Program-made: the position numbers and the translations under genes
Shown: positions 21,214 through 64,000 of the stretch, one piece after another
Position numbering within the stretch: the first letter of the stretch is position 1
Layout: every line of letters begins with the position of its first letter
Notes under the pieces: model-generated
What the model saw: the letters and a program-made list of their open reading frames with translations, nothing else
Database searches by the model: none
What the model was told of the DNA's origin: nothing
Source: a virus
Taxonomy: Duplodnaviria; Heunggongvirae; Uroviricota; Caudoviricetes
DNA: 64,000 bases
IMG/VR virus record: IMGVR_UViG_3300028030_000006
Location: 29,611 to 93,610 of that record
Reading direction: 5' to 3' (one strand)

Positions 21214-21227
21214 AAACTATAAAAACA

Positions 21228-34010: not shown

Positions 34011-34196
34011 CTAGCTTACGCTATGATCGTTAGACATTTTAATAACGTCTGATATAATATTATGTGTAAATAGTTCTGTATTCCCTTTTCTCACCAATAC
34101 TCTCGAGCCTGTATACAATTTATCTTGATGTTTATTACGTATTTGTTGCTCAATTTTGTGGGCTAATTCTAAAGCTTCAAGTTCTACTGAGTACAA
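34011..34196 (-). pseudogene. Remnant of a T5orf172/GIY-YIG-like endonuclease C-terminal domain
   Basis: The 61-aa ORF 'LYTGSRVLVRKGNTELFTHNIISDV' parallels the C-terminus of the neighbouring 315-aa endonuclease ('YYGRKVIRSGNTELYTQDITEI'). Confidence 0.4.
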
Positions 34197-34393
34197 GATG
34201 TAATAATTTCACATTTATATCCGTTATTAATTTAGTACGGGATTGTCCACAACCTTACTTGTTTGGAGTTTCCCCGTTTAGATGGTTTTCGACATAAGAT
34301 TACTCTTATGAAGCCCTGAAATCAAGGAATTCTTTTCGTTTATTGGAGTCACCTGAAACCTGAGCCCCCACCCTATCTTCCTTTAAGGTTCCT

Positions 34394-35341
34394 TTAAGGT
34401 TCCTTTGTAATACTACCTAGGTATTTTGTGGTAATTTCGGTAATATCTTGGGTGTAAAGTTCAGTATTTCCTGACCTAATTACTTTTCGTCCGTAGTACT
34501 TGAATGGTTTTAATATTCCAGCTAGGTCAGCCTCTGCCTTATATGCTAATTCGCTAGAACCAAACGTATGCTGGTAGAGTACTATGTAAGGTTCAGGCTC
34601 TCCACTAAACCTATGTTTTACTGTATGTATAGTAACTCCAAGCTTCCATAAATTAAGTCGGGTAAAGTATATGACATACAAGAGTGTTTTAGTTTCTATG
34701 TCTTTATTTAAGTACCCTCGGTTACATAATGGACATCCTTTCCCTTTTCGATGGTTTTGATAGTCTTGTCTCACCTCGCCATGCACAGGACAGTCATAGA
34801 TAATCGTTGGATTTGCATCGACGCGTGCATAGATTAGGTCTTTATATGTATAAGTATGATTATGTGTTTGTATTAGTAGAGGTATTACCTGCTTTAACAT
34901 TACACGCTTCTGTTTGGCTGATGATAGAAAACCACAACACTTACAACCCTTACCTTGTAGATGATCATATTTTCTCTGTTTTCTAATACCATGCTCCATA
35001 CATATATAATAGACGTAATGTTTATCGATTTTTACATAACTATACTGATTATTATGAATTTTAGAGCAACGAATTTTAAAATCTTTAAATGATATCCTCC
35101 GATTAAGACCACGCTGCTTTCTAGCACAGATAGGACACCCATATTTAGTCTTGAGAATACCATCTGGCGTACTAGTAAAGTCTCCATGTAACTTACATGT
35201 AAATACTGATTTACATTTTGCACAAGAAAAGCTAAATTTATCTGTTAGAATCTTGCCATGGAATCTATTTTTGATTCGTTCTCTGTAAACCATAGAATAA
35301 TCTTTCACTTTACTTTCCTTCTGTTTTGTTGTTAATACCAC
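34394..35341 (-). CDS. Homing endonuclease-like protein: N-terminal Zn-ribbon repeats plus C-terminal T5orf172/GIY-YIG-superfamily domain
   Basis: Repeated CxxC pairs (CAKCKS, CPICARK, CKCCG, CPLCNRG) are present. The C-terminal 'LLYVIYFTRLNLWKLGVTIHTVKHRF...AEADLAGILKPF...GNTELYTQD' fits the T5orf172 pattern. The gene is located inside the polA interruption. Confidence 0.55.
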   Translation of the reverse strand: MVLTTKQKESKVKDYSMVYRERIKNRFHGKILTDKFSFSCAKCKSVFTCKLHGDFTSTPDGILKTKYGCPICARKQRGLNRRISFKDFKIRCSKIHNNQYSYVKIDKHYVYYICMEHGIRKQRKYDHLQGKGCKCCGFLSSAKQKRVMLKQVIPLLIQTHNHTYTYKDLIYARVDANPTIIYDCPVHGEVRQDYQNHRKGKGCPLCNRGYLNKDIETKTLLYVIYFTRLNLWKLGVTIHTVKHRFSGEPEPYIVLYQHTFGSSELAYKAEADLAGILKPFKYYGRKVIRSGNTELYTQDITEITTKYLGSITKEP

Positions 35342-35605
35342 ACTATGTCTCCATAGTGAATAGACTATATCACCACCCGTAGTGTAATCTACGGGGCTCC
35401 CCGTTTCGAGCTACCACTGCTCTACGTCTTACGACTAGTCGTTGAACCTTATCCATATCTAATAAAGACTTAGGATCTTGGCTGCTGATTGTCTCTATTA
35501 CTTAAATTTTCAGAGTTCGTTACATATTTCTATGTGATATTCTATTAAGTACCTTATAAGATATTCCAGCAATTAGAGGAGTTTTTCCAAATCTTATTAC
35601 TAAGA

Positions 35606-37948: not shown

Positions 37949-39249
37949 TCTTCAATCCTCCCTATATGTTGAGATATGACCTTCTCTAAGGTATCAGCGT
38001 CATCCAGATCCACTCGCATTTGATCATACCTAGGTAAAAATAGACTATAAGTATCACTATCACGGCCTTTAATAAGTACATTAAACGTCACTTCGATAAT
38101 CTTACCTATTGGCGGCGTTTTAGTAAACATTTTAACATGCTCATCTGACAGTCCGCTACCGACGTTCACCTTGATCCGCCCATCAGCAGACTCACAAACT
38201 AGAGATCCTACCTGCCCAGCACGCTTACCTTTACCATTTACGACACCAACTACTCTCAATGAACATGAATTAACAGCTTTCATCTTAATCCAAGCTTTAG
38301 TACGTTTAAAGTTATATGGTGCATTTCTATCTTTAATAATTACACCCTCACCACCGGCATTTATAATCTCCTCATTAAACTGTTTAACTTGTCGCATTGA
38401 AGTCGCTAATCTAGACTCGGTAGTCTTTATATGTAGGGATTTAGTAAAAATTACACGTTTTTGTAATGAAAGTGTACGTTCATATTGAGGGTTAGACTTT
38501 CCTTGAGTTAAAAATACGTCTGTAGGAAGCTCATCAAAAGTGGAATACGTAATTATATCGTCGCTATTTGGCTGGTATCCGGACTTCAGGTTTTTATTAC
38601 AAATCCCTGATATAACAGTACGCTGTTCAGTGATTAATTCCCCATCAAACGTTAAGTCCTCACCATTAGCAACTTCTAAACATGCCTTCTCAATCTGAGG
38701 AAAGTGCAGTTCTCGGCCTTGTCGAGTAAATAGTGTACATTTATTATCTTTGATAACTGCTAAACATCTTACACCATCCTCTTTCTTTTCAACAATAGCA
38801 GGAAACTTGAACTTTACCTTCTCATCAAGCGGTGATGCTAAACCGCACTTGAATGTAGGGATAAAAGTATATCCAAAAGCTTTATTTACAGCTGTATCTA
38901 CACCTAACGCTAACTGTTTAGTGATAATACCTTCAACTACTTCTACAACGTCGGGATGTGTGTGTGACAACACGTTTAATGCCTTTTGTCGTAATTTATC
39001 ATTGATATTACTACTACGCAATATGTCTAGTAAAGATATAACATCATCAAACGTTGTAGTAGGCTCCAACATACGATACTCTTCAAATTTCTTAATCTTA
39101 TAAGAATACATAGGGTTTAACCTATATAAAAGTAAAGTCCGAAAATCTGCATCATCTTTGTACTTACGTAATACCTCAAGTTTATCATTTTTTCCGGTGG
39201 TACTTTTCAGTTCTTGTAATTTCTGTGTTGCTTGTTTTAATCGTTCCAT
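37945..39249 (-). CDS. ATP-dependent DNA/RNA ligase (nucleotidyltransferase with KxDG motif I)
   Basis: Motif I 'VEKKEDGVRCLAV' is present, along with downstream nucleotidyltransferase/OB-like regions. Length is 434 aa. Confidence 0.6.
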   Translation of the reverse strand: MERLKQATQKLQELKSTTGKNDKLEVLRKYKDDADFRTLLLYRLNPMYSYKIKKFEEYRMLEPTTTFDDVISLLDILRSSNINDKLRQKALNVLSHTHPDVVEVVEGIITKQLALGVDTAVNKAFGYTFIPTFKCGLASPLDEKVKFKFPAIVEKKEDGVRCLAVIKDNKCTLFTRQGRELHFPQIEKACLEVANGEDLTFDGELITEQRTVISGICNKNLKSGYQPNSDDIITYSTFDELPTDVFLTQGKSNPQYERTLSLQKRVIFTKSLHIKTTESRLATSMRQVKQFNEEIINAGGEGVIIKDRNAPYNFKRTKAWIKMKAVNSCSLRVVGVVNGKGKRAGQVGSLVCESADGRIKVNVGSGLSDEHVKMFTKTPPIGKIIEVTFNVLIKGRDSDTYSLFLPRYDQMRVDLDDADTLEKVISQHIGRIEE

Positions 39250-41468
39250 CTCTCTCCTTTAATTAGTTTAAAGTAATCATCCCGAAGCTTGACAGCATCA
39301 GTATACGGATATTTTGTAGCCAGTTCAATTACATGATACTCGATAGCTCTATACATATTTTCACGTATTTGTTGAAGTTTGCTTCTATCATCCTTAACTT
39401 TATATACTCTTGTTGCAACTGCTCGCATATGTTTCCAAAAACGATACCATCTAGTTTTATATTTAAATCGGTAGCCGTTAGCCCCTACATAAACATACCC
39501 TTCAACGAAGTTTTGACGATCTGCATTAGTATCTTGCTCCATCTCTTCGATATCTGCACGAAGTTCTTCTATAGTACTTATAACTTTTACTACAGATACT
39601 CGATGAACACCCTCGAACAGTACTTGTACATTAATCATTTCAACCTCACTTAAAACCTCAAACTTAATTTGATTCTTAATGGCATCGAGTAAAATTATTT
39701 CTGGTTTAGTATATTTAACTATATGTGGATCTTTTATTGGTTCGATTACTTCAAATGTGAGTGTAACATTATTATCCACTAGAAAATCTCGTAATTCATC
39801 TGTTAGATATGGTTTAAGCTGTTCACGAAACCATATACTATGGGATGATGTAATAGAGCTTTTTGATGCTATAAACCAAGCATCTTTGATAGTATCATAC
39901 GATAAAAGTCCTAAGTAACCATTAGGTTTTTCAACCTTCACGGTAGGGAATGTGATCTGGTTTGTGATTGCATCAAAATCTGTTTGAGGGTTCTCTTTAT
40001 AATTGAAAAACTTCTCGTAGCCTCTTGCAATAATGCTAGAGTCACTACGTATGAATAATCCTCGAGCTTTCGTAGATATGTCATCATACGTACCAGTTTT
40101 AAACGCTTTAGTAGTAAAGTTACAAGCAAACACATCATAGTCTAACTCTCTAACATTTACCATAGTATGTTCCTGCATTAGCTCAAATAAAGGTTTATCA
40201 TTCGCACATACACAAGTAGTTGAAGGCTCATATAATGAAGGATTAGTAGTAAAAGTATAGTCGGTATTTTTAACGGTATGTACTGTACAATCACCATCAA
40301 CAGGCACAATAACAGCTACTAACTCTCCACCATACTCAACGTTTCCTGTGATATTATACATACGATTTTTTACAACTTCTGGCTTCTGTTGTTTAATATT
40401 ACGATGTCCGTGTATTTGCAGCGCACGTGTTGGCATAGCATTAAGCCAATGTTCTTGTATCTTAGTAATATCAGAATAACTACCAACTCCTTTAATGAAT
40501 TCCTTAGTAGATGTTAGCAAACTAGGTATAGTGGGATATCCTGCATGATTAGCGAAAATAATACGATCACCAAACTTAGCATGAAACATTTGCCAATATC
40601 TAGTACGTAAACGTGTTACATCTTTTACTGTAATACCTGCCTGCATAAACTGATAAAAAGTTCGACGTGTTGCTGGGGATAGTTTAACTGTGCGTTTAAA
40701 TTCAGCATACTTATGATCTCCCGATGTACGTGCTGCTAACCACTCTTTGTAATGTATTAAGTGAGAATCATGATTACCTTCTAGTAGTACGTAATCAGGA
40801 CTGTCTTGGATAAGTTTAAATACTCCAGCCGCATCCTCTCCTCGATCAAACAAATCACCGATAAACACTGTCAACTGTTTATCCTGTTCTGTATCACTTA
40901 AGATTTGTTTAAGTTGTTTAAAGGAACTATGAACATCACCGATAAATCTAATACTATTATACTTATCCGTATAATCGAATAACGCTTCGTCTATTGTAAA
41001 CTCATCAGGTTTTACTACTTTAATCCAAGAAGGTATTATATTGTACTGAATACGCGCATACATGTTATCAATAACGTCTGCAGGAACTCTTTTAACGCCG
41101 CGTAAATCATTACGGCGGTGTAATTCTTCTAACGATACATCTCTAAAATCTACTGCAATAATTCGATATCTATACTGTTTGGCAAGTGTACGATACCTAT
41201 TAATCAGTTTAGAGCGCGTATGTGTTGCATCAATAATTGTAAAATCACCATTCTGCATTCGATGTTCTAGTAGTGTGAATAAGTGATCCCACACAGCTCC
41301 GTCATTCTTTTGTGATATGCCTTTGGATCCGTCTATCTGAGTTTCTGGTGCTTGGTACTGTAATCTAATAATGTCTGGAGACAATGTATAAGATTCTAAT
41401 CCTTGTGACGCAATCCACGTCGATTTTCCTGAAGCTGGCGTACCTACAGTAATAACTAATGTTCTCAT
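39237..41468 (-). CDS. Pnkp-like trifunctional end-healing/sealing enzyme: polynucleotide kinase, lambda-phosphatase-like phosphoesterase, and a C-terminal ligase-like domain
   Basis: The P-loop 'ITVGTPASGKSTW' is present. Phosphoesterase motifs 'GDVH', 'GDLFDRGED', 'LEGNHD' and 'HGHR' are present. The C-terminal 'VEKPNGYLGL' resembles ligase motif I (KxNG, as in Rnl2 KIHG). Confidence 0.55.
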   Translation of the reverse strand: MRTLVITVGTPASGKSTWIASQGLESYTLSPDIIRLQYQAPETQIDGSKGISQKNDGAVWDHLFTLLEHRMQNGDFTIIDATHTRSKLINRYRTLAKQYRYRIIAVDFRDVSLEELHRRNDLRGVKRVPADVIDNMYARIQYNIIPSWIKVVKPDEFTIDEALFDYTDKYNSIRFIGDVHSSFKQLKQILSDTEQDKQLTVFIGDLFDRGEDAAGVFKLIQDSPDYVLLEGNHDSHLIHYKEWLAARTSGDHKYAEFKRTVKLSPATRRTFYQFMQAGITVKDVTRLRTRYWQMFHAKFGDRIIFANHAGYPTIPSLLTSTKEFIKGVGSYSDITKIQEHWLNAMPTRALQIHGHRNIKQQKPEVVKNRMYNITGNVEYGGELVAVIVPVDGDCTVHTVKNTDYTFTTNPSLYEPSTTCVCANDKPLFELMQEHTMVNVRELDYDVFACNFTTKAFKTGTYDDISTKARGLFIRSDSSIIARGYEKFFNYKENPQTDFDAITNQITFPTVKVEKPNGYLGLLSYDTIKDAWFIASKSSITSSHSIWFREQLKPYLTDELRDFLVDNNVTLTFEVIEPIKDPHIVKYTKPEIILLDAIKNQIKFEVLSEVEMINVQVLFEGVHRVSVVKVISTIEELRADIEEMEQDTNADRQNFVEGYVYVGANGYRFKYKTRWYRFWKHMRAVATRVYKVKDDRSKLQQIRENMYRAIEYHVIELATKYPYTDAVKLRDDYFKLIKGERWND

Positions 41469-49341: not shown

Positions 49342-49650
49342 CTATTCTCCAATTTTCAATAACTTTAATGCGTACTCTGTACCATCTTTAAAACCGTCTA
49401 AATATGTTACACCATCTGGTATTTCTATAGCATCCCCTATAGTCTCTACTAAACTTATTGCTTCGTCCTTATCACTCGTTGTATATACATTTGTAGCACC
49501 AGGAGTTCCGTGTAGTGATATATCTACACGATAAATAGGTTGTTTAGTATCCCAATGGACATCTTCAAAGATTGACACACTAGCAATAGCCGATGGGACA
49601 ATAAAAATTGGGTTTTTATTTATTTCTAGCCTCATATTATTTTCCTTCAT
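49342..49650 (-). CDS. Hypothetical protein
   Basis: 102-aa ORF. Confidence 0.35.
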   Translation of the reverse strand: MKENNMRLEINKNPIFIVPSAIASVSIFEDVHWDTKQPIYRVDISLHGTPGATNVYTTSDKDEAISLVETIGDAIEIPDGVTYLDGFKDGTEYALKLLKIGE

Positions 49651-50233
49651 CGAATAACAGTTCAGCTATTTGTTTTATGTTTTTATAGTGCAAGTTATCC
49701 TCTTTTTCAGCTTTAGCTATTAACTCATCTAAAATCCCATAAAAACAACCTCTATTAACGTATATAGTATTGTTATACCTTACCAAAGTTAATACACCAT
49801 TCTCATAACCGATATGGGATATAACTTTTATATCCTTTTGTCTTTTTAACTCAATGTCATCAAATAAAGTACCATATAATTTTGTATATAGCTTTGCATT
49901 ATTAAACATTATTGCATTATTAAACATTGCTGCATTATTAAACATTGCTGCATTATCATATAGCTTTGTATTATTGAACATTTCTGCATTATCATATAGC
50001 TTTGTATTATTAAACATTGCTGCATTATCATATAGCTTTGTATTATTAAACATTGCTGCATTATCATATAACCAACAAGTACCTTCTTGACTTAAGTTAT
50101 GTTCGTTGTTTACATAACCCCCTAAATCACCTTTTTTAACATTACCAAAGTCTTTTAATGCTTTAATTTGATAATTAACACCAGCACCATAAAATTTATG
50201 GTTTGGTTGTAATTTTATTAATTCATATTTCAT
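49637..50233 (-). CDS. Hypothetical protein containing an in-frame tandem 12-aa repeat (KLYDNAAMFNNT)
   Basis: The 36-bp DNA unit 'attatcatatagctttgtattattaaacattgctgc' is repeated about 3 times, plus 18-bp sub-repeats, at roughly 49890-50075. Confidence 0.45.
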   Translation of the reverse strand: MKYELIKLQPNHKFYGAGVNYQIKALKDFGNVKKGDLGGYVNNEHNLSQEGTCWLYDNAAMFNNTKLYDNAAMFNNTKLYDNAEMFNNTKLYDNAAMFNNAAMFNNAIMFNNAKLYTKLYGTLFDDIELKRQKDIKVISHIGYENGVLTLVRYNNTIYVNRGCFYGILDELIAKAEKEDNLHYKNIKQIAELLFDEGK

Positions 50234-50698: not shown

Positions 50699-51595
50699 TT
50701 ACCTCATCAGAAAGTCTTTAACACTTATATCGTTTTTAAATAGATACTTCGCTACATCGCCGAATGATGTTAATGGGTACCCTTTTGCCAGTACCGCAGA
50801 AATAATATATGATCTAGGGTATGTGTCAAGCTCTTCTAGTAAATGTACCAATCTAGCACATTTAAATGGTTTTAACATATCTATAATATCTTTTACATGT
50901 CCAGGGTGTGTTACAATAACTTCCCATAAAGATGGTGATATATTACAGTGTTCAACAGACGTAGTACCATCATCAGCAGACGTAGTATCATCATCATCAG
51001 CAGACGTAGTATCATCATCAGCAGCAGACGTAGTATCATCATCAGCAGACGTAGTATCATCATCAACAGATGTAGTATCATCATCAGCAGACGTAGTATC
51101 ATCATCATCAACAGACGTATTACCTCGTGTAGCTGTTAATAAAAGGCCTATAATTGTAGTCCCGCTTGGAGCATTCTCCAACTGCTCAGCTAGCTGTGTG
51201 ACTGTTAAGTCACCTACATCTCTTTTTGTATGTACACCTAAGAAAAATAGAGCTGTAGGCAATTCTGTAAGTACTTGATCTAATACGTGCAATTTTTCAG
51301 ACTCTTGATTGTCTTTGAGTAACTTTTTAATTTTACTTATATCAGAGATCTTGTGAAGCTCCTCCCAACTAAGAGATTTATTAGTACCTGTATGACCATT
51401 AAGCTCATCTCTCATCCGTCTATTTATACCAGACCAAAAAGCGTAACCTTCGGGAGTCATATCCCAACTAAATGCAGTAACTAGGGTAGTATATTTATCA
51501 GTACAACTAATGTCACATTCTCCAATGTTCTCTTTTACAGCTTTCCATAAGTTATTGACTTGAAGCCATTGTTTTTGTTGTTTATTAAATTTCAT
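50699..51595 (-). CDS. Hypothetical protein with an acidic (D-D-D-T-T-S-A)n tandem repeat
   Basis: The 21-bp unit 'gacgtagtatcatcatcagca' is repeated about 7 times at roughly 50945-51125. Confidence 0.45.
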   Translation of the reverse strand: MKFNKQQKQWLQVNNLWKAVKENIGECDISCTDKYTTLVTAFSWDMTPEGYAFWSGINRRMRDELNGHTGTNKSLSWEELHKISDISKIKKLLKDNQESEKLHVLDQVLTELPTALFFLGVHTKRDVGDLTVTQLAEQLENAPSGTTIIGLLLTATRGNTSVDDDDTTSADDDTTSVDDDTTSADDDTTSAADDDTTSADDDDTTSADDGTTSVEHCNISPSLWEVIVTHPGHVKDIIDMLKPFKCARLVHLLEELDTYPRSYIISAVLAKGYPLTSFGDVAKYLFKNDISVKDFLMR

Positions 51596-53484: not shown

Positions 53485-54120
53485 TTAAATAAATGTTGGT
53501 TGATCTTTAAGTTCTAAACTTAAAAAGTTTGTTGGTGTTAAATCATAGTGATTTCGTAACTCTGATTTGGTAAAATCAGTCTCAATAATTAAAAGCGTCT
53601 CCTCCTTTTTGTAGTGTGTAATCAAGGCGTGTAAAATTTGCCTTGAAATATTATAATTAGTTGTAACCTCAGCCCCAACTGAATGTATTAAGACTACGTC
53701 AGCTTGAGGATTATCATGTTGTTCAAAGGCAGCATTAGCCCTTTCTGTAAAATCAATTCCTCTAACTTCTCGACCTTCATCAACTAATTGATTAATGACA
53801 GGCGCTGCAGTCCCTTTAATCACAAGCAAACCAGTTTTTGGTGCTTGTGATATCTTACCCTGTAATTGCTTAGCTCTAGCTAAAGATATTCGAGTATCTT
53901 CATAATTAAGGTTTAAGTAAGTTACTGGTAATTTGTAATACGTATAGACTAATTTGTTTTTCTGCACTAGGTCTACCTCCTTCATAGTGGTTTTAATTGT
54001 TGCGTGTGTGTGTGTTTTATTTTCCAGATCCGGTGAATACAGGAATCTGCAGTGGGCTGTGCCCGGCCCTACATCTAACATAGGTTGTATTGCGAAGCTT
54101 GCTGAGCTCTTACAATACAT
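53485..54120 (-). CDS. Hypothetical protein; start uncertain
   Basis: The track ATG at 54120 has no SD. An internal GTG roughly 153 nt downstream is preceded by AAGGAGGT with 7-nt spacing. Confidence 0.4.
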   Translation of the reverse strand: MYCKSSASFAIQPMLDVGPGTAHCRFLYSPDLENKTHTHATIKTTMKEVDLVQKNKLVYTYYKLPVTYLNLNYEDTRISLARAKQLQGKISQAPKTGLLVIKGTAAPVINQLVDEGREVRGIDFTERANAAFEQHDNPQADVVLIHSVGAEVTTNYNISRQILHALITHYKKEETLLIIETDFTKSELRNHYDLTPTNFLSLELKDQPTFI

Positions 54121-54549
54121 GTTAGATGTAGGGATTAATACTAATAGTGAGGCTACCTCACATATGCTTAATGAGTACGAAGCTCAAAATAGGCAATTAA
54201 GCCAACAATTTTATATATATATATATGCGTGTTAGGTGACTATATTTTCGATGTCTGATACATAAGATAGGTTTAAATAGTCCTCTGTAGACGTTTATAT
54301 TCCCATGAAATAAATCCTGTATTAAATTGAAGCAATTAGATTAATGAACTCTAGAGTCTAAAATCAATCTAAATATTCATTGAATATAGTATTTATATCG
54401 TTGGAATGTAAGCTGTCTTCAGAAGGACATTTAAAGATTGTATACTGTATTATATTAATATTGGAGAACCTCCAAATTACTGATTAGTTTAACCAGTTAG
54501 CTATCAAACACAAAATAAAAGATACTCGTTAAGAGTATTTAATAGCCCG

Positions 54550-55453: not shown

Positions 55454-56329
55454 TTAAAATAATGGTTCGACTTCTTCAGGTGCTTCTTCAGGTGCTTCTT
55501 CAGGTGGTATATACTCTGATAACTCGATGGGCTCACTTTTCGGTAAGACAACCTTTACGTAACTTAACAACTCTGGTCGTTGGCTAGGATCAACTTCACG
55601 CAAAATTGTGGATGCTGCAGCACTCTCGTATCCAATCCATACCTCAAGCAACGCTTTGTACGATAATGCATCTCGCATAGTTAATTCATAACCACGCTTA
55701 CGTAATTCTTCACGAGTCCTTTTTATTGCTTCATCTATTCGAAGATTATCCAGTAAATCAGTTTCTAGTTGTTCATCTAGTTCCCACTCAAGTCGTAAAA
55801 ATCTTGACATAGTTGAAGCATCTAGTTTTGTACGAGCATTATAGTTATCATCGCTACCACCATAAGTGTTAGCTGTTGCTATAAGACGAAAATCAGGGTG
55901 TCTTTCTACCATACGCCCTGCAAAATATCCACGATGTCCTGCAATAGCTGTATTCAAGTTAAGTAGGATGTTATTATTAATGGCATCAATCTCCTCTATA
56001 ACAAATACGCCACCTTGCTGATAGAATTGTCCTAACAAGCTATCAATTATCTTACCGTCAGGTGAGCGGTAACCTAACATGTCGCTTTTTGTGAGTTGTT
56101 GCGAACCTGCCATGTAGCCATAATTTAAGCCTAATGTTTCAGCTAGATGTTCAGCTGCTTGGGATTTAGCGGTACCTGCTGGTCCTGTAAGCATGATAGG
56201 CATATGAAGCCCGTCGTGATTTACTGCATTACTGTATTGTAGTAAATCAGTAAATCTTTTATGTTCTTTACGTTTTTTATTGGGCATTATATTCCTTTTA
56301 ATGATAAATTTACAAAGAATCTGTAACAT
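55454..56329 (-). CDS. AAA+ ATPase (CbbQ/NirQ/GvpN-MoxR class) with a C-terminal PEEA repeat tail
   Basis: Walker A 'LTGPAGTAKSQAAEHLA', Walker B 'VFVIEEIDAIN' and sensor 'RLIATANTYG' are present. The C-terminus is 'PPEEAPEEAPEEVEPLF'. Confidence 0.6.
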   Translation of the reverse strand: MLQILCKFIIKRNIMPNKKRKEHKRFTDLLQYSNAVNHDGLHMPIMLTGPAGTAKSQAAEHLAETLGLNYGYMAGSQQLTKSDMLGYRSPDGKIIDSLLGQFYQQGGVFVIEEIDAINNNILLNLNTAIAGHRGYFAGRMVERHPDFRLIATANTYGGSDDNYNARTKLDASTMSRFLRLEWELDEQLETDLLDNLRIDEAIKRTREELRKRGYELTMRDALSYKALLEVWIGYESAAASTILREVDPSQRPELLSYVKVVLPKSEPIELSEYIPPEEAPEEAPEEVEPLF

Positions 56330-56346
56330 TTCGATCTGAGACCCCA

Positions 56347-56392
56347 GCGACGACTCGAAGGCATCCTACCCGAGGATGTCCGTCTGTCGTCG
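56347..56392. other. G+C-rich nested imperfect hairpin (cgacgac...gcatcct-acccg-aggatgtc...gtcgtcg) in the 5' leader of the AAA+ gene
   Basis: Composition is locally about 65% G+C in an AT-rich genome. It has a two-stem dyad structure. It lies roughly 20-60 nt upstream of the RBS 'AAAAGGAATATAATG'. Confidence 0.3.
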
Positions 56393-56501
56393 GTCGAAGA
56401 TCGATTATGTTAAGATATATATAGAATAGTATTGTTACTATCGAGAGGTAACCTCGAATCCTTTTAAGCTAAATTTATACAATACGTTGTAATGACTACA
56501 A

Positions 56502-56548
56502 AATGTAAATCTTGACCGTTATTAGTTACAAAGGTCAAGATTTACATT
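56502..56548 (-). terminator. Perfect 16-bp inverted repeat (AATGTAAATCTTGACC ... GGTCAAGATTTACATT) with a 15-nt loop. Candidate terminator after the 129-aa gene.
   Basis: The perfect palindromic arms lie 90 nt downstream of the stop of the 56638..57027 gene. On the - strand the hairpin is followed by UUUG. Confidence 0.4.
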
Positions 56549-56637
56549 GATATGTTATGTAGTATTAGCGATACACTAAACTAAGAGCTAGTCATTTACG
56601 ATTATTGCGTTAAAATTGCACCTAAGTAAGGTCTACA

Positions 56638-57027
56638 TTATAGTAGAGCGTTAGCTTCTGTATCAGCATTACCTAACCAATATGCAGCACCTAGTAAGTT
56701 AGCATCTGTAGCAATTGCACGACATAACTCAGCATTTAGTGAAAAGTTCTCATCAGCGATATCAGTACAAGTAGCAGCAACTGCAGCGCTATGTCGCTGT
56801 TTAATTACTTGTAGCAGTGATTCCTCATCCAACATTGACATCGATACACACCCACTCACAGTCTCGATTGTTAAATTTTTGTTAGCTTTTAAAGCTCCTT
56901 TTGAAGAACCTTTATATGCTTCTACTGCTGCTTCGACTGTACCAATGATTGTATCGATCTCTTTGTCGATAGATTTACCTTTTTGTGCTTTTTTGATTGT
57001 TTGAGTTAATAATTTTGAGAAACGCAT
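56638..57027 (-). CDS. Hypothetical protein
   Basis: 129-aa ORF with RBS AAAAGGATATAAAATG. It is the last gene of the RT operon. Confidence 0.4.
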   Translation of the reverse strand: MRFSKLLTQTIKKAQKGKSIDKEIDTIIGTVEAAVEAYKGSSKGALKANKNLTIETVSGCVSMSMLDEESLLQVIKQRHSAAVAATCTDIADENFSLNAELCRAIATDANLLGAAYWLGNADTEANALL

Positions 57028-57109
57028 TTTATATCCTTTTATTTTAAAGTTTATGGGTTATGAAGGGACTTACCAAACTAAATACTCCGACCGTAAATAC
57101 AGATAGGTT

Positions 57110-58879
57110 TTAGCTAAAGCCTTCTATAACTGTATTTATGTACTTTAATACTGCTGTATAATCACCAGGCATGATTTTTACTCCTTTACGTGGATTTGAC
57201 ATATAGATCGTTTTAATTCCCTGAGTTTTTTGACAATCTATATGTAAAGGTATATTTGAATTAAGAACAGAGGATAGTGCTTTAAATTCAATACCATATT
57301 CATCATATAGTATGTCTTTCAGTGGTTGATCACCTCGATACACACTAATAGAACGTCTATCCTTATACGCTACAAACTTAGTAGGATCAGGTAACGGCAG
57401 CGTTGTATGTTTAACCTCATCCACCTTAGCCACACCGCCAACTGTAAGCATGATAGTCCGTGAATCTAATACCTCTTTAACCTGTCTAGGGATTTTAGAG
57501 TACGAGTCTACTACAGGAAGGACAATATCTCCTTCCTTAAATGTATCTGTAACAGATACACTATTTACTGCAATAATATTTTCTGTAGTTACAGTAAACA
57601 TAGTATCACTAGACATTATAGTAATACCAGATACATCTATTGACCTAATAATACCACTGTGGATGATGGAAGTATTAGGATTGGTAAATGTTACATTATC
57701 ACCAACCTGTACAAGTAGATGACTAACAGAGTTGATAGATACTACAACACTGGTATTTTCTGCATATATATTTATAATATTCTGCTGTTGATCTACACTA
57801 ATTACCTCGAAAGTACCTCCTCGAAGGGTTTTAGGTATCTCTGGATCAAACCGTAACACAACTTTCTGGTTTGGTCTGATTTGCAGCCCTGGTGTATACT
57901 CTACAATTTCATCAAGTCGTTTGGATAACACATCCCCAGTAGAGTTTCTATATTTAATCTCATCATCACTTACCGATATAACTGTATAACATCTTGTAAT
58001 ATTCCTGAAGTATACTCGAGAGCCTACTGGCGGCTCTAATACACAATTTGACTCCCGCGCTTTAAGTTCTGGTAAAGGTTCATCACGTTGGTGATAGGAA
58101 ATAATTTCTTCACTAACAGCAGTTATTACACCTTTTTGTAACTCTGCATCTTTTTGATATACTTGTATATGATCACCAATACGAAATTTTGTGGACTCTG
58201 GTGGCATTTCTCCTCCTTTTTTAATATGTACTATTTTATTATTACGGACCCATGTAGTAGTCCCAGATGGTTGTTGTATTTTGAACATTCTCTTGAAGGC
58301 ATCTATCTCTCCAACAGTTACCTCATGAGCTATACCATCATCATAAAATAGTAGCTCATCATCAACTTGTGGCACTAGTGAGTGTACAAAAGATAAGTTT
58401 ATCCTAGTAATTTTGCGTGTTTTTGGATCTTGGACATCAAAATCTAATGATACGTCTGGCATAGAAACTACATTTACTACAGCTTGAGAGAATTCATGAG
58501 GGATGGAGACCAGTACACTCGAGTGTAATTTAATTTGGTCTCCAATATTCAACTGTAAAGGCTTGGGACACACTTCCCTAATACTGCCATAATCTTTAAT
58601 ATTTTCGTATAATAGAGTAGTAGAAGTAAATATGCCTCGAGTCCTAACATAATAACTTAAGTAGAAATAACGAATAGAGTCATCATAGTCAAATTTAACC
58701 TCATCACCAATGTCAGGTCTAAGCATTAGATGCTTAGTATCCCAGCGAGTTACCCCATGTTCTGGTATCTGTACGGTAACCACATCAGAATTTGTTGAAA
58801 GTATCGTGCCTATTGAGTCTGTTGACTTATTATATACCTTATTACCAACATGAAAAACTTTTGAAACTTCCGATGACAT
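57110..58879 (-). CDS. Large hypothetical protein built of repeated small beta-barrel-like (SH3/KOW/Tudor-like) modules. Translationally coupled to the RT.
   Basis: The 589-aa product has recurring '(V/I)GD.(V/I)...' modules: VGNKVYNK, IGDQIKLH, IGDHIQVY, VGSRVYFR, VGDNVTFT, EGDIVLPV. Its ATG lies 1 nt after the RT stop (TGAtATG), with a GAGG RBS inside the RT 3' end. Confidence 0.5.
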   Translation of the reverse strand: MSSEVSKVFHVGNKVYNKSTDSIGTILSTNSDVVTVQIPEHGVTRWDTKHLMLRPDIGDEVKFDYDDSIRYFYLSYYVRTRGIFTSTTLLYENIKDYGSIREVCPKPLQLNIGDQIKLHSSVLVSIPHEFSQAVVNVVSMPDVSLDFDVQDPKTRKITRINLSFVHSLVPQVDDELLFYDDGIAHEVTVGEIDAFKRMFKIQQPSGTTTWVRNNKIVHIKKGGEMPPESTKFRIGDHIQVYQKDAELQKGVITAVSEEIISYHQRDEPLPELKARESNCVLEPPVGSRVYFRNITRCYTVISVSDDEIKYRNSTGDVLSKRLDEIVEYTPGLQIRPNQKVVLRFDPEIPKTLRGGTFEVISVDQQQNIINIYAENTSVVVSINSVSHLLVQVGDNVTFTNPNTSIIHSGIIRSIDVSGITIMSSDTMFTVTTENIIAVNSVSVTDTFKEGDIVLPVVDSYSKIPRQVKEVLDSRTIMLTVGGVAKVDEVKHTTLPLPDPTKFVAYKDRRSISVYRGDQPLKDILYDEYGIEFKALSSVLNSNIPLHIDCQKTQGIKTIYMSNPRKGVKIMPGDYTAVLKYINTVIEGFS

Positions 58880-58880
58880 A

Positions 58881-59789
58881 TCAACGCCTCGCTCTCGGCT
58901 CTTTACATGAAGCCCACTCTATTAATCCTAATGTACGTGTAATATCTTGCTGATGTATCGCTTGGCGAAGTTGCATTTTAGTCTTTCTAGTACGATATAC
59001 CTGTGTATGATCTACCGCAACACCACAAATGATACGACGCATCCAAGGCTTATGCCCAAACTTTAATTTGGTCTTTTTAAAGTTAATCTTAAAGTTCGAC
59101 TCTTTTAAAAGATGATAAACGGTCTGCTTAATGGCTTCATAATCCATGCGATTGTTAAATGAGATCGTAATATCATCAGCATATACTGTCATACGTGCCT
59201 CAGAGGCTATTGTACGTACAGCATCATCTATTTGGTATGCTACCTCGATAAAGGCTATCGAAGCCAGTAAAGGACTTGTAGGAAGTCCTTGTCGGGTTAC
59301 ACCATTTAACAGACAATAATCGAGGATATCACTACTTATAGATAAGTTGTCAAACCTTTCTCGTGTAATTTGGTCGAAGAAGTTTTTCATGTCGAATTTC
59401 GCCGAATAGTTATACCCAATATGAGCTTTAGCATTTGTAACCGCATTGTAATTACTACGAAAGGCGTGAAACATTCCTCGTGTATCCATCAGAGACAGAA
59501 TTTGCTCAAGGTTTGGCAATAAGGATTGTAGTTTATGCTTATACTGGGTATTTGGAGCATATACATAGCGATAAGACCCATTACCTTTATCTATACGATG
59601 TACTTTACATGCTTTACACAACACTGTTGCTGTAAGTAGGTATGCAGCCTGCTTTGGCGTTTTATTTGTAATGTCATGAGTAGCTCCGTCAATAGTAATG
59701 ACATTATTATCTTCGTCGATCGTGACTTCAGGGTTGAAGCGGTAACGCCACTTCAACTCTTTCCAATCTTTGATTTTAGAGTTCGACAT
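58881..59789 (-). CDS. Reverse transcriptase (small, retron/Abi-like domain set)
   Basis: RT motifs are in order: 'GMFHAFRSNYNAVTNAKAH' (NAxxH), 'FDMKNFFDQI' (motif A Asp), 'QGLPTSPLL' (QGxxxSP), 'MTVYADDITISF' (YADD), 'INFKKTKL' and 'RRIICGVAVD'. The 302-aa gene has a strong RBS, AAGGAGGTAGT, before its ATG. Confidence 0.75.
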   Translation of the reverse strand: MSNSKIKDWKELKWRYRFNPEVTIDEDNNVITIDGATHDITNKTPKQAAYLLTATVLCKACKVHRIDKGNGSYRYVYAPNTQYKHKLQSLLPNLEQILSLMDTRGMFHAFRSNYNAVTNAKAHIGYNYSAKFDMKNFFDQITRERFDNLSISSDILDYCLLNGVTRQGLPTSPLLASIAFIEVAYQIDDAVRTIASEARMTVYADDITISFNNRMDYEAIKQTVYHLLKESNFKINFKKTKLKFGHKPWMRRIICGVAVDHTQVYRTRKTKMQLRQAIHQQDITRTLGLIEWASCKEPRARR

Positions 59790-59790
59790 A

Positions 59791-60033
59791 CTACCTCCTT
59801 GGACGTAATGGGAATACTTTCCCTGAAAATACCATATATAGCTTCCAGAAAAATCCTTTGTTTGTGTCTATGCGCCACGTTGGGTGGTCGAGTGAGTATT
59901 CCCATTTACGTCTTTTGTTTGTGGAGTAGGACGTCCCGAACAGTCTAAATGTTCGAATTTTGTGGTGAGTTTCTATGAGTACAACACCTCGTTTAAAGGC
60001 GTCTCGCATTTCTTGTTGGTGTTTGGTATTCAT
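59791..60033 (-). CDS. Small basic protein (80 aa) overlapping the inverted-repeat element upstream of the RT. Coding status uncertain.
   Basis: RBS AAGGAGAAGTG precedes the ATG at 60033, and the TGATG overlaps the upstream gene's stop. The ORF spans the 59801-59912 dyad element. Confidence 0.35.
   Translation of the reverse strand: MNTKHQQEMRDAFKRGVVLIETHHKIRTFRLFGTSYSTNKRRKWEYSLDHPTWRIDTNKGFFWKLYMVFSGKVFPLRPRR
59801..59912 (-). ncRNA. Candidate retron-like msr/msd ncRNA. An 18-bp inverted-repeat pair (a1/a2-like) flanks 76 nt and ends 1 nt before the RT RBS.
   Basis: 59801-59818 'ggacgtaatgggaatact' is the reverse complement (one indel) of 59895-59912 'agtattcccatttacgtc'. The internal hairpin 'ccaccc aacgtgg' and its position directly 5' of the RT match retron geometry. 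The region is short and overlaps an ORF. Confidence 0.25.
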
Positions 60034-60512
60034 CACTTCTCCTTATTTATTATGTTCTGTATTGTGGTATTTATAGCATCCCAAAATAAGAATCCTTCAG
60101 GCGTATCTTTCCAAACGAACGCCTGTTTTAAGGTAAGGTTCTCCATATTTGACATTTCCGCATACTTAATATGTGACTTTACAAGTCGCCAAACGCCTAG
60201 GCGTTTCAGTATACGTTTTTGCTCTTTGTTGAACGGGGTATAAGGTTTAAGTACTAAATCGTTTGGTAAACATATAGCTATCTTAGGACTAAACTCGCTA
60301 GGTTTTATCACTGAGTACTCAGCATATAACTCAATCAGTTCCGGGCTACTTGCAGCAGTAGCTAAATCACTGTACTTAGTACCATATTCTAACGTATCCC
60401 GCAAATCTACTACCCTTACGAGCAACTTAGTACTATCTAGTGTACATTTAAAGAAATGGCCAACGAATTTCGTCCAGTTTTTATCCATATATTGAGTTGT
60501 GTATTTATGCAT
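60033..60512 (-). CDS. Hypothetical protein, paralogue of the upstream gene
   Basis: The 159-aa product shares 'NWTKFVG..FK', 'WKDTPEG..FW..IN' with the 166-aa neighbour. Confidence 0.45.
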   Translation of the reverse strand: MHKYTTQYMDKNWTKFVGHFFKCTLDSTKLLVRVVDLRDTLEYGTKYSDLATAASSPELIELYAEYSVIKPSEFSPKIAICLPNDLVLKPYTPFNKEQKRILKRLGVWRLVKSHIKYAEMSNMENLTLKQAFVWKDTPEGFLFWDAINTTIQNIINKEK

Positions 60513-61005
60513 TTTCGTTCTCCTTAATATGTTTATTTATGTTAGCCCAGAAATTATACCCTTCCGGTGTGTCTTTCCAACAAAAAGCGCTTTGAAGTGT
60601 TATAGTGCTACTAATACTTCGGTAATCGTTAGTACGTTTTATATATTGATATATACGCTTTTTTGTGCGTTTCCATAATTTAAGACGTTTTAGGTTATGT
60701 TTTTCAGCCTTATCAAACTGAATTACCAACTCTAAACATATAATATCTGACAGACAGACAGACTTCTTGAGGTCTGTAACCCCTTCAGGTAAATATTCAG
60801 CATACGTAGGTTCGCCTGGCTCATTCTGATTCCTGTCCGTATATTCACGAATCGTACTAGTGGAATGTATTTCGTCGACGTCTACTAGTTTTAACACTTG
60901 TCCAAATTTTCTCGAGTCGGTAGGACTAACCACTTTAAAACGGCACCCTACAAATTTGGTCCAGTTGGCATCAAGTTGTGGAGCTGTCAATATTAACTTT
61001 TTCAT
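60505..61005 (-). CDS. Hypothetical protein, paralogue of the downstream gene (tandem duplication)
   Basis: 166 aa with RBS AAAAGGATAATACAATG. It is the first gene after promoter P2. Confidence 0.45.
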   Translation of the reverse strand: MKKLILTAPQLDANWTKFVGCRFKVVSPTDSRKFGQVLKLVDVDEIHSTSTIREYTDRNQNEPGEPTYAEYLPEGVTDLKKSVCLSDIICLELVIQFDKAEKHNLKRLKLWKRTKKRIYQYIKRTNDYRSISSTITLQSAFCWKDTPEGYNFWANINKHIKENENA

Positions 61006-61067
61006 TGTATTATCCTTTTATGTTTTTGTTTGATATTAGGTATGTGTATTATTAGGTAGGGTATTGA

Positions 61068-61150
61068 GTTACCTATTGGGTTACTTATTGGGTTACTTAT
61101 TGGGTTACTTATTACGCTACCTATTGGGTTACTTATTACGCTACCGTTTA
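61068..61150. repeat. Short tandem repeats (GGGTTACTTATT / ACGCTACCTATTGGGTTACTTATT) in the transcribed leader downstream of promoter P2
   Basis: Directly visible. The track ORF 61002..61193 merely translates these repeats (SNPI/SNPIG). Confidence 0.8.
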
Positions 61151-61202
61151 GCGTATCTCTATAGGTGTAAGTACCTATTACCTCTGCCGGCAATAGGTTT
61201 TT

Positions 61203-61231
61203 ATTATATCCAGATTTGAGCTTTTTGTCAA
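61203..61231 (-). promoter_or_regulatory. Consensus sigma-70 promoter P2 (TTGACA-17-TATAAT) directed into the - strand operon
   Basis: The reverse complement of 61203-61231 reads TTGACAaaaagctcaaatctggaTATAAT. It sits inside a ~140-bp element duplicated at 62456-62585. Confidence 0.7.
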
Positions 61232-61277
61232 GCGATTTCGCTTAAAACCATCTTAAATTTACAAATTTCAGGTAGAT

Positions 61278-61493
61278 TTAAGCCTTGACCATCGCTTTCG
61301 CTTTTGGTGTGAGGTAGTAGTCCAGACCTAACACCGTCTCCCGCAGCTCCAATAGTCCTGCTTGTATAGCTTTAGCCGGGCTTTTAACAAGCTTATTGTA
61401 AAGCTTGAATTGGCCTTTTAAGCTTGTACAACTTTCGCTATTTTCATGATGGTAGGTTTGAGACCCGCCTCCGACAAACTCTCCGGCTATCAT
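61278..61493 (-). CDS. Hypothetical protein (G+C-richer island gene)
   Basis: 71 aa. Codon composition is shifted relative to the rest of the window. Confidence 0.35.
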   Translation of the reverse strand: MIAGEFVGGGSQTYHHENSESCTSLKGQFKLYNKLVKSPAKAIQAGLLELRETVLGLDYYLTPKAKAMVKA

Positions 61494-61741
61494 TTCAAAC
61501 CTCCACAGTGTTTAGGGAAGCCATTACTATCGAGACGTGGTGTCATACCCGCCCCGTAACGAGATTCGAGAATTAAATATTCCCTATAACTTTGTGGGTC
61601 ACAATAAACTGTGACGTTATTGGGTCTATTGTACTGTTGAGGTGTTGTATATGATTCAGTATGTAGACCGCCCGCACTCTGACACGCTGAGAATGTCATA
61701 ATTATTGCGACGATGCCTAAGGCGTATTGATGTAGTTTCAT
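61490..61741 (-). CDS. Small lipoprotein (signal peptide plus lipobox FSAC)
   Basis: 'MKLHQYALGIVAIIMTFSACQSAGG' is a lipoprotein signal with the Cys at +1. The mature part is about 63 aa. Confidence 0.5.
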   Translation of the reverse strand: MKLHQYALGIVAIIMTFSACQSAGGLHTESYTTPQQYNRPNNVTVYCDPQSYREYLILESRYGAGMTPRLDSNGFPKHCGGLK

Positions 61742-62167: not shown

Positions 62168-62384
62168 AATGATTCCTTTGTATAGTAAGAGCGATACGCT
62201 CTAAGTGACGAATAAGGTTCGTTTGGAGGCGTTAGTATCTAACGCGGACTAAAGGTGTTAAGAGATTTAATAATCCCTCCAGAGATACATATTTAGTAAC
62301 TTAATATGCTCGATAAGAATTGGAGACGGTTTATATAGGTTAGTAGGATATGTATCTATGTAAGGATTGTGAGGTACTGTGTAT

Positions 62385-62435
62385 ATTGAGCTACCTATTG
62401 GGTTCGTTATTGAGCTACCTATTGGGTTCGCTAAA
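62385..62435. repeat. Tandem repeat (GAGCTACCTATTGGGTTCG(T/C)TA..) in the P1 leader. Related to the P2 leader repeats.
   Basis: Two direct copies are present. They share the 'CCTATTGGGTT' core with 61068-61150. Confidence 0.75.
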
Positions 62436-62512
62436 CGGTATCATAATAAGTTAGCGTTTAGCGTATCTCTATAGGTGTAAGTACCTATTACCTCTGCCGG
62501 CAATAGGTTTTT

Positions 62513-62541
62513 ATTTTACCCAAATTTTCCGTTTTTGTCAA
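62513..62541 (-). promoter_or_regulatory. Near-consensus sigma-70 promoter P1 (TTGACA-17-TAAAAT) directed into the G+C-richer small-gene island
   Basis: The reverse complement of 62513-62541 reads TTGACAaaaacggaaaatttgggTAAAAT. It is in the same register as P2 within the duplicated element. A 57-bp stretch immediately downstream (62456-62512) is identical to 61146-61202. Confidence 0.65.
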
Positions 62542-62678
62542 GTGAAATCACTTAAATCTACCTGAAATTTGTAAATTTAAGCGTCCTCTAAGCTTATAGG
62601 ACGATTTCCGCCCACTTAGCCAACTTTGTTTCGAGCTTATCAAGCCAATCGTTTAAGGTTTTCATAAGGTTTCTCCTT

Positions 62679-63310: not shown

Positions 63311-63876
63311 TGTACTAGAGCCCTCCGCTATGGGGCTGTTGGCAATTACATAATTCATCTCCAGAAAATTTCAAAACGCTTGCCGCTCCTCCCGCTAGGG
63401 GCGACCCAATAAAGGACGCGAAACGGTATGATATGAAATTTGTAGAGACCACCCCTTGCCGTTTTGGGGTGATAGAGATACGCTCTCTATGGGCGTTTGA
63501 CGCCATCGGCACTACTGCTCTAGGTGACGCCACGGGATTTATACCCACCCGCTAAGGGCACTGCCGCCAATCTATCTTAGTACCCGATACGATAACCAAC
63601 ATTTCATAGAAAACCGCTATTTGCCTTTTACCCCGTGTCGCTTCACGGGAAGATTATAGGCGGTTTGACTAAAACCACTAAGGTCAGTTGGCTATATTCT
63701 ATGCGTACATAATACGCCCCTAAAGCGGGGATATAGCCCTTCGTGGGCGGTTTTGACGGGTTGCCATAATCTTGGAAAATTCGGGGGTTGTCGTTAATCT
63801 TGGATAAATTTTTGACAGAAGTCGCCCTATCCTACTAAATAGGGCTTTGAATTTTTAAGTTAGATACAATTTATAA

Positions 63877-64000
63877 GCCATACGCTAAGCCATACGCTAA
63901 GCCATACGCTAAGCCATACGCTAAGCCATACGCTAAGCCATACGCTAAGCCATACGCTAAGCCATACGCTAAGCCATACGCTAAGCCATACGCTAAGCCA
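63877..64000. repeat. 12-bp tandem repeat (GCCATACGCTAA) with at least 10 copies, truncated by the window end
   Basis: Perfect copies run from 63877 to the last base of the window. Confidence 0.9.

Follow-up and report, generated by a model that had tools for sequence, protein, structure and literature searches.

A possible phage-borne retron-like system with a coupled barrel-array protein and several candidate template RNAs in a virulent-type metagenomic phage

The window, by which is meant the whole 64,000-nucleotide (nt) stretch of virus record IMGVR_UViG_3300028030_000006 analysed here, is part of a 93.6-kb metagenomic contig. On its minus strand it has a gene for a reverse transcriptase (RT), followed by a gene for a partner protein of 589 amino acids (aa) and, further downstream, by three predicted RNA units with a retron-style layout. 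With a probability of about 60%, the locus is considered to be a phage-borne retron-like system, made up of the RT, several template RNAs and a coupled partner built as an array of barrels. All of the open reading frames (ORFs) listed in a preliminary description of this DNA were found on the minus strand at the coordinates it gave. The features on which the argument turns are as follows (MFE, minimum free energy; a1 and a2, inverted repeats):

58881 to 59789, minus strand: retron-lineage RT of 302 aa, matching Pfam RVT_1 and with intact catalytic motifs
57110 to 58879, minus strand: RT partner of 589 aa, starting 1 nt past the RT stop codon
56491 to 56596, minus strand: predicted RNA unit 1, comprising a1 AAUGACUA followed by GCUC, a short stem-loop, an AU-rich linker, a 16-bp hairpin and a2 UAGUCAUU (MFE -33.9 kcal/mol over 106 nt)
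56304 to 56478, minus strand: predicted RNA unit 2, comprising a1 AUAAAUUUA followed by G(56469)CUU, a stem-loop, an AU-rich linker, a GC-rich hairpin (56410-56335) and a2 UAAAUUUAU (MFE -52.7 kcal/mol over 175 nt)
53995 to 54210, minus strand: predicted RNA unit 3, comprising a1 AAUUGUUG followed by G(54202)CUU, two short stem-loops, an AU-rich linker, a 23-bp hairpin (54067-54133) and a2 CAACAAUU (MFE -68.7 kcal/mol over 216 nt)

Retrons are known from bacteria as anti-phage systems in which a single RT works on a single template RNA, and Mestre and colleagues reportedly divided them in 2020 into types I to XIII. The preliminary description had taken the RT of the window to be genuine, and this is borne out by the presence of the motifs NAKAH, FDMKNFFD, QGLPTSP and YADD and by a match to Pfam RVT_1 (84 bits, E-value 1.3e-23). 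Among the 25 PADLOC matches displayed out of 58, 24 are to retron RT models (114 to 65 bits), headed by RT_III-A at 114 bits, and the other is to a CRISPR-associated RT model; no UG, Abi or DRT model appears among these 25. The NCBIfam ranking has retron_St85 first (108 bits, cut-off 235), followed by group_II_RT_mat (51 bits, cut-off 300) and Drt3a (19 bits, cut-off 200). The best solved structure for the protein is that of retron Ec86 (E-value 1e-12), to which its thumb segment can be aligned, with the NAxxH motif retained. A resemblance to retron, Abi or defence-associated RTs had been proposed; the retron part of this stands on the PADLOC, NCBIfam and Ec86 comparisons, while the Abi/DRT part does not. 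Judged by its profiles and motifs, the enzyme is a genuine RT that belongs to the retron lineage.

Relatives of the RT were sought among 5.8 billion proteins, which gave about a dozen at 44-55% identity, all of them metagenomic, and more distant retron-type RTs at 28-42%. In the resulting 12-member family, the motif RRIICG is invariant, and YADD, QGLPTSP, NAxxH and FDMKNFFD are invariant or nearly so; NAKAH corresponds to residues 119-123, where A120 and H123 never vary and N119 hardly does. The protein ends directly after its thumb. Matches in GenBank phages reach only 27-29% identity, and no match came from single-protein scans of viral contigs or from reference genomes scanned with the RT alignment. 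The same RT occurs in about ten phage lineages known from metagenomes, and contigs of ten distinct lineages were examined for its neighbourhood. These have a conserved gene order, in which the RT is followed by a protein of variable length, a protein of approximately 128 aa, an AAA_5 ATPase and a DUF7192 protein, while no two lineages agree in the left flank of the RT.

A place for this RT in a diversity-generating retroelement (DGR), or an origin as the remnant of a group II intron, has next to no probability. There is a weak match to group II intron RTs (the 51 bits given above, against a cut-off of 300), and two tail-fibre genes of the window share repeats of 84-94% identity. The mismatches between these repeats are not adenine-specific, however, and no template/variable repeat pair lies near the RT, in agreement with the earlier opinion that it is not of the DGR type. 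Nor did profile searches of the window give a match to an Avd-like accessory gene. For the group II intron, retron profiles score far above those of group II, neither intron RNA nor a maturase or endonuclease domain was found with Pfam and Rfam, and no group II intron was detected by Rfam in the window at gathering thresholds, or in 56000-61500 and the loci L001, L003 and L006 at permissive ones. Both identities are effectively ruled out by the repeat, Rfam and profile tests.

The partner gene starts 1 nt past the stop codon of the RT, as was described before, and this linkage recurs with an overlap or a 1-nt gap in most lineages. A partner homologue lies directly 3′ of the RT in the window's own locus (W) and in L001, L006, L095, L096 and L097, with an overlap of 4-17 nt or a gap of 1 nt. 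Homologues of 243-502 aa follow the RT in L001, L003, L006, L093, L095 and L096, and L094 has a reduced form of 132 aa in this place. The partners of 589, 502, 426, 374, 359, 323 and 243 aa share a homologous C-terminal region of 150-250 residues, and across the lineages they are built of 2-9 barrels of the KOW/Tudor/SH3-like type and a conserved C-terminal domain. The 589-aa protein itself has about 6-9 such barrels and a C-terminal domain of approximately 100 aa. The six repeat modules proposed for it were recovered, each carrying the motif [VIL]G[DSN]x[VI], of which five are clearly related and one is marginal in a leave-one-out comparison; the spacing of the modules along the sequence suggests that there may be up to nine.

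Little resembling the partner is to be found elsewhere. A word-indexed homologue search with the 589-aa protein returned only itself, and an exhaustive HMMER search of 1.84 billion representatives returned only two syntenic partners and single-module matches, one module matching a protein made of SH3_3 repeats. A repeat-module profile built from W is circular, and it finds nothing in the other partners. Modelling of the full-length protein with AlphaFold from the single sequence gave an unusable model (pLDDT 33); with an alignment of three sequences, two barrels were modelled at pLDDT 75-87, and these match the folds of the Spt5 tandem KOW, tandem Tudor and kin17 SH3-like tandem domains as well as uncharacterised multi-barrel phage proteins. 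The last barrel and the C-terminal domain are homologous to small stand-alone paralogues in L091, a related contig (hhalign 95.5%, E-value 1.5e-8), so that the partner resembles an enlarged version of a protein from a phage-specific family. There was no PADLOC, NCBIfam or above-cut-off Pfam match to the partner, no enzymatic domain was detected in it and a PDB sequence search gave nothing. The effector that had been suspected here is therefore not borne out: the protein shows no sign of an enzymatic effector, corresponds to no known retron-type effector and appears as a set of binding barrels derived from a family of small phage paralogues.

It is very unlikely that the RT and the partner are neighbours by accident, with the RT a selfish or decaying retroelement that landed among fast-evolving early genes and the 589-aa protein a paralogue that has nothing to do with it. 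Such an arrangement would agree with the homology of the partner core to the L091 paralogues, with the left flank of the RT being different in every lineage and with L099, which has an RT without a partner. However, the catalytic residues of the RT are invariant in spite of divergence to 44-55% identity, partners of the multi-barrel form occur nowhere but directly after the RT, start and stop overlapping in six lineages, and neither a maturase or endonuclease domain nor an intron RNA is present. The gene arrangements support a functional tie between RT and partner, with predicted translational coupling in most lineages.

The RNA units share a layout in which a1 is followed by G-CU(U/A), a short stem-loop, an AU-rich linker, a long hairpin and a2. 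They were identified in the intergenic gaps of the RT family with a rule requiring U[AG]-GCU (the hyphen marking the end of a1), an a1/a2 pairing anchored at the G that is 8 bp or longer, and a span between 80 and 300 nt. On the gene strand, 17 units were found in 10,065 nt of such gaps and on the opposite strand none, whereas 0.31 ± 0.56 are expected by chance (maximum 3 in 500 shuffles). The motif alone occurs 49 times on the gene strand and 19 times on the opposite strand, against 16 ± 4 times in shuffles. Three units lie in the window, three in L003 (after the DUF7192 gene), two in L001 and one in L006; L093 has four in tandem, L094 two upstream of the RT, and L097 two, one of which ends at the ribosome-binding site of the RT. 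The a1 and a2 sequences differ from unit to unit yet remain complementary, and the interior layout is common to all. As the a1/a2 complementarity is built into the rule, the independent evidence is limited to enrichment, strand bias and shared interior. In L093, units 2-4 agree almost completely in the 5′ part and have different long hairpins and a1/a2 sequences.

Within the window, unit 3 follows the DUF7192 gene, the same position at which L003 has its three units, and it can be taken as intergenic because the next gene has an AAGGAGG Shine-Dalgarno sequence and a GTG start at 53967. Unit 1 is the least certain of the three, owing to its variant motif (GCUC) and its short span (90 nt). Its long hairpin is the perfect 16-bp hairpin at 56502-56548 that had been read as a terminator; the hairpin is there, but the terminator scan passed it over because its U-tract is short and its loop measures 15 nt. 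The preliminary description had also confined a self-contained system to 57110-61005, which no longer applies as the RNA units lie outside these limits, at 56596-56304 and 54210-53995. In silico, the units have the architecture of a retron non-coding RNA (ncRNA), namely the a1/a2 repeats, a conserved G, an msr-like stem-loop and a long msd-like hairpin. They have no match in Rfam, and no nucleotide or k-mer conservation was found among the non-coding gaps of different lineages. Covariation from near-identical contigs is uninformative, their pairs being 100% identical.

Some observations made alongside the units may be recorded. The ORF at 53485-54120 probably starts at the GTG at 53967, and the AAA_5 ORF listed at 55454-56329 (minus strand) starts inside unit 2, with a better start at about 56287, 42 nt downstream (AAAGGA Shine-Dalgarno sequence and ATG). 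In L001, the motif CTATCGTTGGACGTAACGTCCATAGTAYGCTTAACA with the perfect palindrome TGGACGT-ACGTCCA occurs three times (9251, 9431 and 9827) in the 1-kb gap upstream of the RT, and long hairpins come after two of the copies. To the RNA model of the sister clade that is described next, the best match in the window family (17 bits, E-value 0.11) is one of these three copies.

The closest relatives of the phage RTs form a sister clade of 'minimal' RTs of approximately 250 aa with RRIICG or RRVVTG, known from 88 metagenome loci and 30-43% identical to them; the 60-aa N-terminal extension of the phage family is not present in it. A conserved block upstream of the RT is common to 22 sister-clade loci. 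An Infernal covariance model seeded with six in-register sequences recovers an RNA in 29-31 RT loci, while RNAalifold on a MAFFT alignment missed its stem P1, the arms being out of register. The RNA begins with UUUAGCUU, followed by the 9-bp stem P1 and an invariant inner hairpin, GUGUUGAUGnUUCGUCCAC, which is not present in the window family. In this RNA 97% of cells are paired and compensatory changes occur in 9/9 P1 pairs, with a covariation score of 0.389 in an alignment fitted to the model, as against 0.121 for shuffles (0/500) and 0.03-0.05 for slid controls. Several members have a1/a2 anchored at the same G, for example over 20 bp in L024.

In most loci the sister-clade RNA precedes the RT, and in one sub-clade it is found downstream of RT and partner; as it can lie on either side of the RT, a variable RNA position is normal for the lineage. 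In 14 loci the RT is followed by a coiled-coil-like protein of approximately 175 aa with an acidic tail of the single-stranded DNA-binding protein (SSB) type (DFDDDIPF or DFDDDTPF), while other members are approximately 430 aa long with a C-terminal extension. Examples of sister-clade loci are L011, L018, L033, L040, L041, L050 and L052, and their genomic contexts are mixed, bacterial as well as viral. From its sequences, the clade with its RT and UUUAGCUU-P1-hairpin RNA (models R1 and R2) looks like an uncharacterised retron type. Two RT-linked RNA families outside Rfam are defined in this way, and the sister-clade one, with its strong covariation, can be used at once for modelling and searching.

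The connection between the two RNA families bears on whether the units of the window have anything to do with the RT. They could instead be general phage RNA elements, such as RNase III processing or stability sites, terminators or mobile promoter/stem-loop cassettes resembling the PeSLs of T4-type phages, in which case the RT would use another template or none and its closeness to the units would be a coincidence. In W and L003 there are indeed units that lie at a distance from the RT, following DUF7192, and the intergenic gaps of these phages often contain long hairpins. The phage also encodes its own sigma factor, so that promoter motifs of an unfamiliar kind are conceivable, and the sister-clade RNA model has no significant match to the units. 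However, the pairing is anchored exactly at the conserved G motif, and since a1 lies upstream of this motif and places it inside the RNA, a promoter is out of the question for it. An identical UUUAGCUU stands at the head of the RNA accompanying the sister RTs in unrelated contexts; in the window it is found exactly in unit 2, through which this unit is the top match to the sister-clade model (gene strand, 56480-56397), although at 12.9 bits (E-value 1.1) the match is not significant. Against general elements there are also the strand bias of 17:0, the variation of a1/a2 between units, unlike that of transposon ends, a size and layout in agreement with retron ncRNAs, and the lack of an array in the L091 stretch without RT, where unit matches are at background level only. 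This explanation is on balance unlikely. It may be added that L091 has, at 1897-2211, a 13-bp inverted repeat anchored at UG-GCUGA with a span of 289 nt, which is either a unit of the same kind or due to chance.

A further alternative is that the RT makes DNA without a dedicated structured template, in a protein-primed or template-independent manner as with AbiK, DRT4 and DRT9, and that the partner coats the single-stranded product. A partner which is a variable-length string of nucleic-acid-binding-type barrels would be suited to this, and there is no conserved RNA at a fixed place beside the RT across the family. The RT nevertheless groups with retron RTs, its Drt3a score and the displayed PADLOC matches giving no hold to a DRT or UG affiliation; it retains NAxxH and the thumb segment aligned with Ec86, and its loci are strongly enriched in retron-style units. 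The alternative is quite unlikely.

Under the retron-like reading that is preferred here, the units would be transcribed in the same early transcription unit as the RT and partner, and the a1 and a2 inverted repeats would close each RNA. Retrons carry a guanosine at the end of a1 whose 2′-OH serves in priming, and the conserved G of U(A/G)-GCU(U/A) at the end of a1 may be its counterpart. The RT would recognise the msr-like 5′ part of each unit, prime from the G and copy the long hairpin into a small single-stranded DNA. The predicted outcome is a set of differing molecules resembling multicopy single-stranded DNA (msDNA), to which the barrel-array partner would bind, probably together with the RT. 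Since the genes lie near an early promoter of a virulent-type phage, the complex would most likely act in conflict, either against host defences or against competing phages or satellites. Of the roles first put forward for the locus, retron-like DNA synthesis is the one that the retron-lineage RT and the RNA units now favour, and nothing was found in support of genome-end processing.

A number of points weigh against this reading. The amino acids 'VTG' are a signature of retrons in RT motif 7 (PMC8632793), and the RT family carries ICG instead. In the alignment with Ec86 ICG takes the place of VTG position for position, and as some members of the sister clade retain VTG (for example RRVVTG in L022), ICG is a derived state. 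The RT remains under every curated retron family cut-off of NCBIfam and cannot be assigned to any of the retron types I-XIII, many of which score about equally, as they do for the sister clade. On the side of the RNA, the scan rule was designed after the first example had been seen, and a scan of the whole window gives 9 matches against about 5 expected, which is background. The units do not always adjoin the RT, some lying after DUF7192; L099 has no clear unit, L095 only one of 7 bp, and L096 is too short to judge. The sister-clade RNA model finds nothing significant in the window family, its best match being the one in L001 mentioned above, ahead of unit 2 of the window. As for the partner, it is missing after the L099 RT, its C-terminal domain is poorly modelled (pLDDT of about 50) and its core is related to small paralogues that occur without an RT. 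The 'RT-less' status of L091 covers 15 kb of its 18-kb contig, and the retron-like complementary DNA is a prediction from sequence.

The system would work like a retron, as judged from the RT lineage, NAxxH and the ncRNA architecture, and it departs from retrons in lacking VTG, a score above the family thresholds and a known effector. Compared with bacterial retrons such as Ec86/Eco1 (reviewed in PMC8632793), it has in common with them the RT lineage with its NAxxH motif and retron-like thumb, an ncRNA layout of a1/a2, conserved G, msr-like stem-loop(s) and long msd-like hairpin, and a protein partner encoded beside the RT. It differs in its location, which is the early gene block of a virulent-type phage and not a defence island or prophage, and in having several ncRNA units per RT, tandem or dispersed, where one is the norm. 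Its partner is likewise different, being a binding-barrel array without a recognisable toxin or enzyme domain and without a PADLOC model, and its msDNA is predicted from sequence alone.

Retron-like RTs have been seen in phage genomes before. In the lytic Staphylococcus jumbo phage MarsHill and its relatives, gp206 is a retron-like RT beside a 1.2-kb non-coding stretch that was proposed to hold an ncRNA (bioRxiv 10.1101/2020.12.14.422802), and filamentous Pf phages of Pseudomonas have retron-type RTs also. The RT of the window is only 27-29% identical to these over 70-78% of its length, and MarsHill gp206 further differs in having a 200-aa N-terminal domain of its own, no associated partner and no defined ncRNA units. 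The sister clade is nearer, sharing an ncRNA that starts with UUUAGCUU and lies upstream or downstream of the RT, while its inner hairpin GUGUUGAUGnUUCGUCCAC and its acidic-tail partner or C-terminal fusion are its own. The nearest parallel to the RNA units is found in engineered 'multitrons', synthetic arrays of retron ncRNAs or msds for multiplex editing, in which one RT serves arrayed units with a common msr and different msd hairpins, as in units 2-4 of L093; these arrays are synthetic, and the terms 'in nature', 'naturally' and 'natural retron' do not occur in the text of that work (PMC10370050).

In the literature consulted, for which full-text coverage was limited so that absence is not proof, no retron with defined ncRNAs was found in a virulent phage, and ncRNA arrays were found only as engineered ones, no search beyond this having been made for natural ones. 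If the reading is correct, a retron-type system would be maintained by a virulent-type phage lineage among its early genes, implying that reverse transcription is used on the phage side of the conflict. It would then be the first natural case found of one RT with an array of template RNAs that share a recognition part and differ in the template hairpin, and the partner would represent a new class of retron partner built only of binding barrels. A bolder version, which can be put forward only tentatively, sees in the locus a natural 'multitron' in which one RT copies several hairpins and the barrel-held DNAs act early in infection as counter-defence decoys or as a weapon against co-infecting phages. 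As decoys, for example, the small DNAs might keep host immune effectors that are guarded by msDNA or sense DNA silent. A bacterial anti-phage device would in that case have been turned to the phage's own use.

The remaining features of the neighbourhood are the following:

61203 to 61231, minus strand: predicted sigma-70-type promoter, TTGACA-17-TATAAT, with a 12/12 consensus match and the sole one of its kind in 56200-61400
60505-61005, minus strand: tandem paralogue 1, 166 aa (ORF list)
60033-60512, minus strand: tandem paralogue 2, 159 aa (ORF list)
59791 to 60036, minus strand: structured segment of 246 nt, an open frame previously listed as an 81-aa ORF
56638 to 57027, minus strand: conserved helical protein of 129 aa, with homologues of 39-52% identity in all RT loci

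The consensus sigma-70 promoter, already noted in the preliminary description, was found at 61231-61203 and heads a long minus-strand block of early and replication genes, with the RT near its promoter-proximal end. A second copy of the promoter and its leader of 12-nt tandem repeats (GGGTTACTTATT-like) is present 1.3 kb upstream with 79% identity, as a 198-nt repeat (61074-61271 and 62384-62581) in which the tandem repeats occupy 61037-61156 and 62371-62442. The 12-nt repeats of these two similar promoter-plus-repeat cassettes could be binding sites.

The 166-aa and 159-aa proteins upstream of the RT are paralogues, as had been proposed (35% identity, E-value 3e-20), and their C-termini match phrog_16354, which is present in another gene of the window too. 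A PDB sequence search with the 166-aa protein gave nothing. A conserved link to the RT did not hold up, no homologues adjoining the RT in L001, L003 and L006, and on this comparison the pair is context outside the conserved RT module.

The segment between these genes and the RT had been regarded as a small basic ORF. It is open, but without a frame-specific codon signal, scoring -0.03 in frame against -0.17 and -0.30 off frame, whereas the range for real genes is +0.17 to +0.41 in frame and -0.44 to -0.98 off frame, and by this measure it looks non-coding. Its folding z-score is -3.9 (0/200 shuffles as good), with pairing that covers the Shine-Dalgarno sequence and AUG of the RT. The segment was the first ncRNA candidate and was rejected as it has no a1/G/a2 unit and the equivalent positions in L003 and L096 are coding. 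No conservation of it was found in other RT loci, and it is possibly a leader or translational-coupling element.

The 129-aa protein had been counted as part of the RT operon. Its homologues occur at the same position in L091/L092, with no RT within the contig stretch examined, for which reason it is considered a core phage gene and not RT-specific. It has a weak match to LmuC (E-value 3e-5), the sole one in PADLOC, and no PDB relative by sequence search.

The phage itself has no close DNA relative among 50,697 GenBank phage records, and of its best-conserved window proteins, the RNA ligase/kinase and DUF7192 proteins included, none exceeds 35% identity to a protein of cultured phages. The genes of the window include one for a DNA polymerase that is interrupted by a group I intron, and others for DNA and RNA ligases with polynucleotide kinase, for ribonucleotide reductase, helicases and primase, and for an SbcCD-like nuclease, PhoH, MazG, a sigma factor and tail fibres; no lysogeny genes were seen among them. 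With a gene content of this kind, the phage is classed as virulent-type. Scans of the window and the RT loci found no tRNA genes, and the group I intron was the only Rfam match at gathering and permissive thresholds.

The split polymerase gene extends over 33133-37393 (minus strand), with exon 1 at 35606-37393, the group I intron at 35341-35634 (RF00028, 92 bits), an HNH/homing-endonuclease ORF after it at 34394-35341 and the C-terminal part at 33133-33801 (phrog_17 positions 1057-1247); 33801-34394 falls outside these parts. Phages use polynucleotide kinase/phosphatase and RNA ligase for RNA repair against host anticodon nucleases. A 743-aa fusion of these two activities is encoded at 39237-41468 (minus strand; phrog_8238, 607 bits), which suggests an investment of the phage in counter-defence. 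The edge of the window is occupied by about ten perfect tandem copies of the 12-mer TAAGCCATACGC (63850-63993), where the G+C content is higher (44%). Other tandem repeat arrays are present at 21090-21215 (a 21-nt unit, five times, apparently intergenic), at 49868-50088 (an 18-nt unit in or near ORF 49637-50233) and at 50928-51146, the last being an in-frame repeat of 21-24 nt inside ORF 50699-51595.

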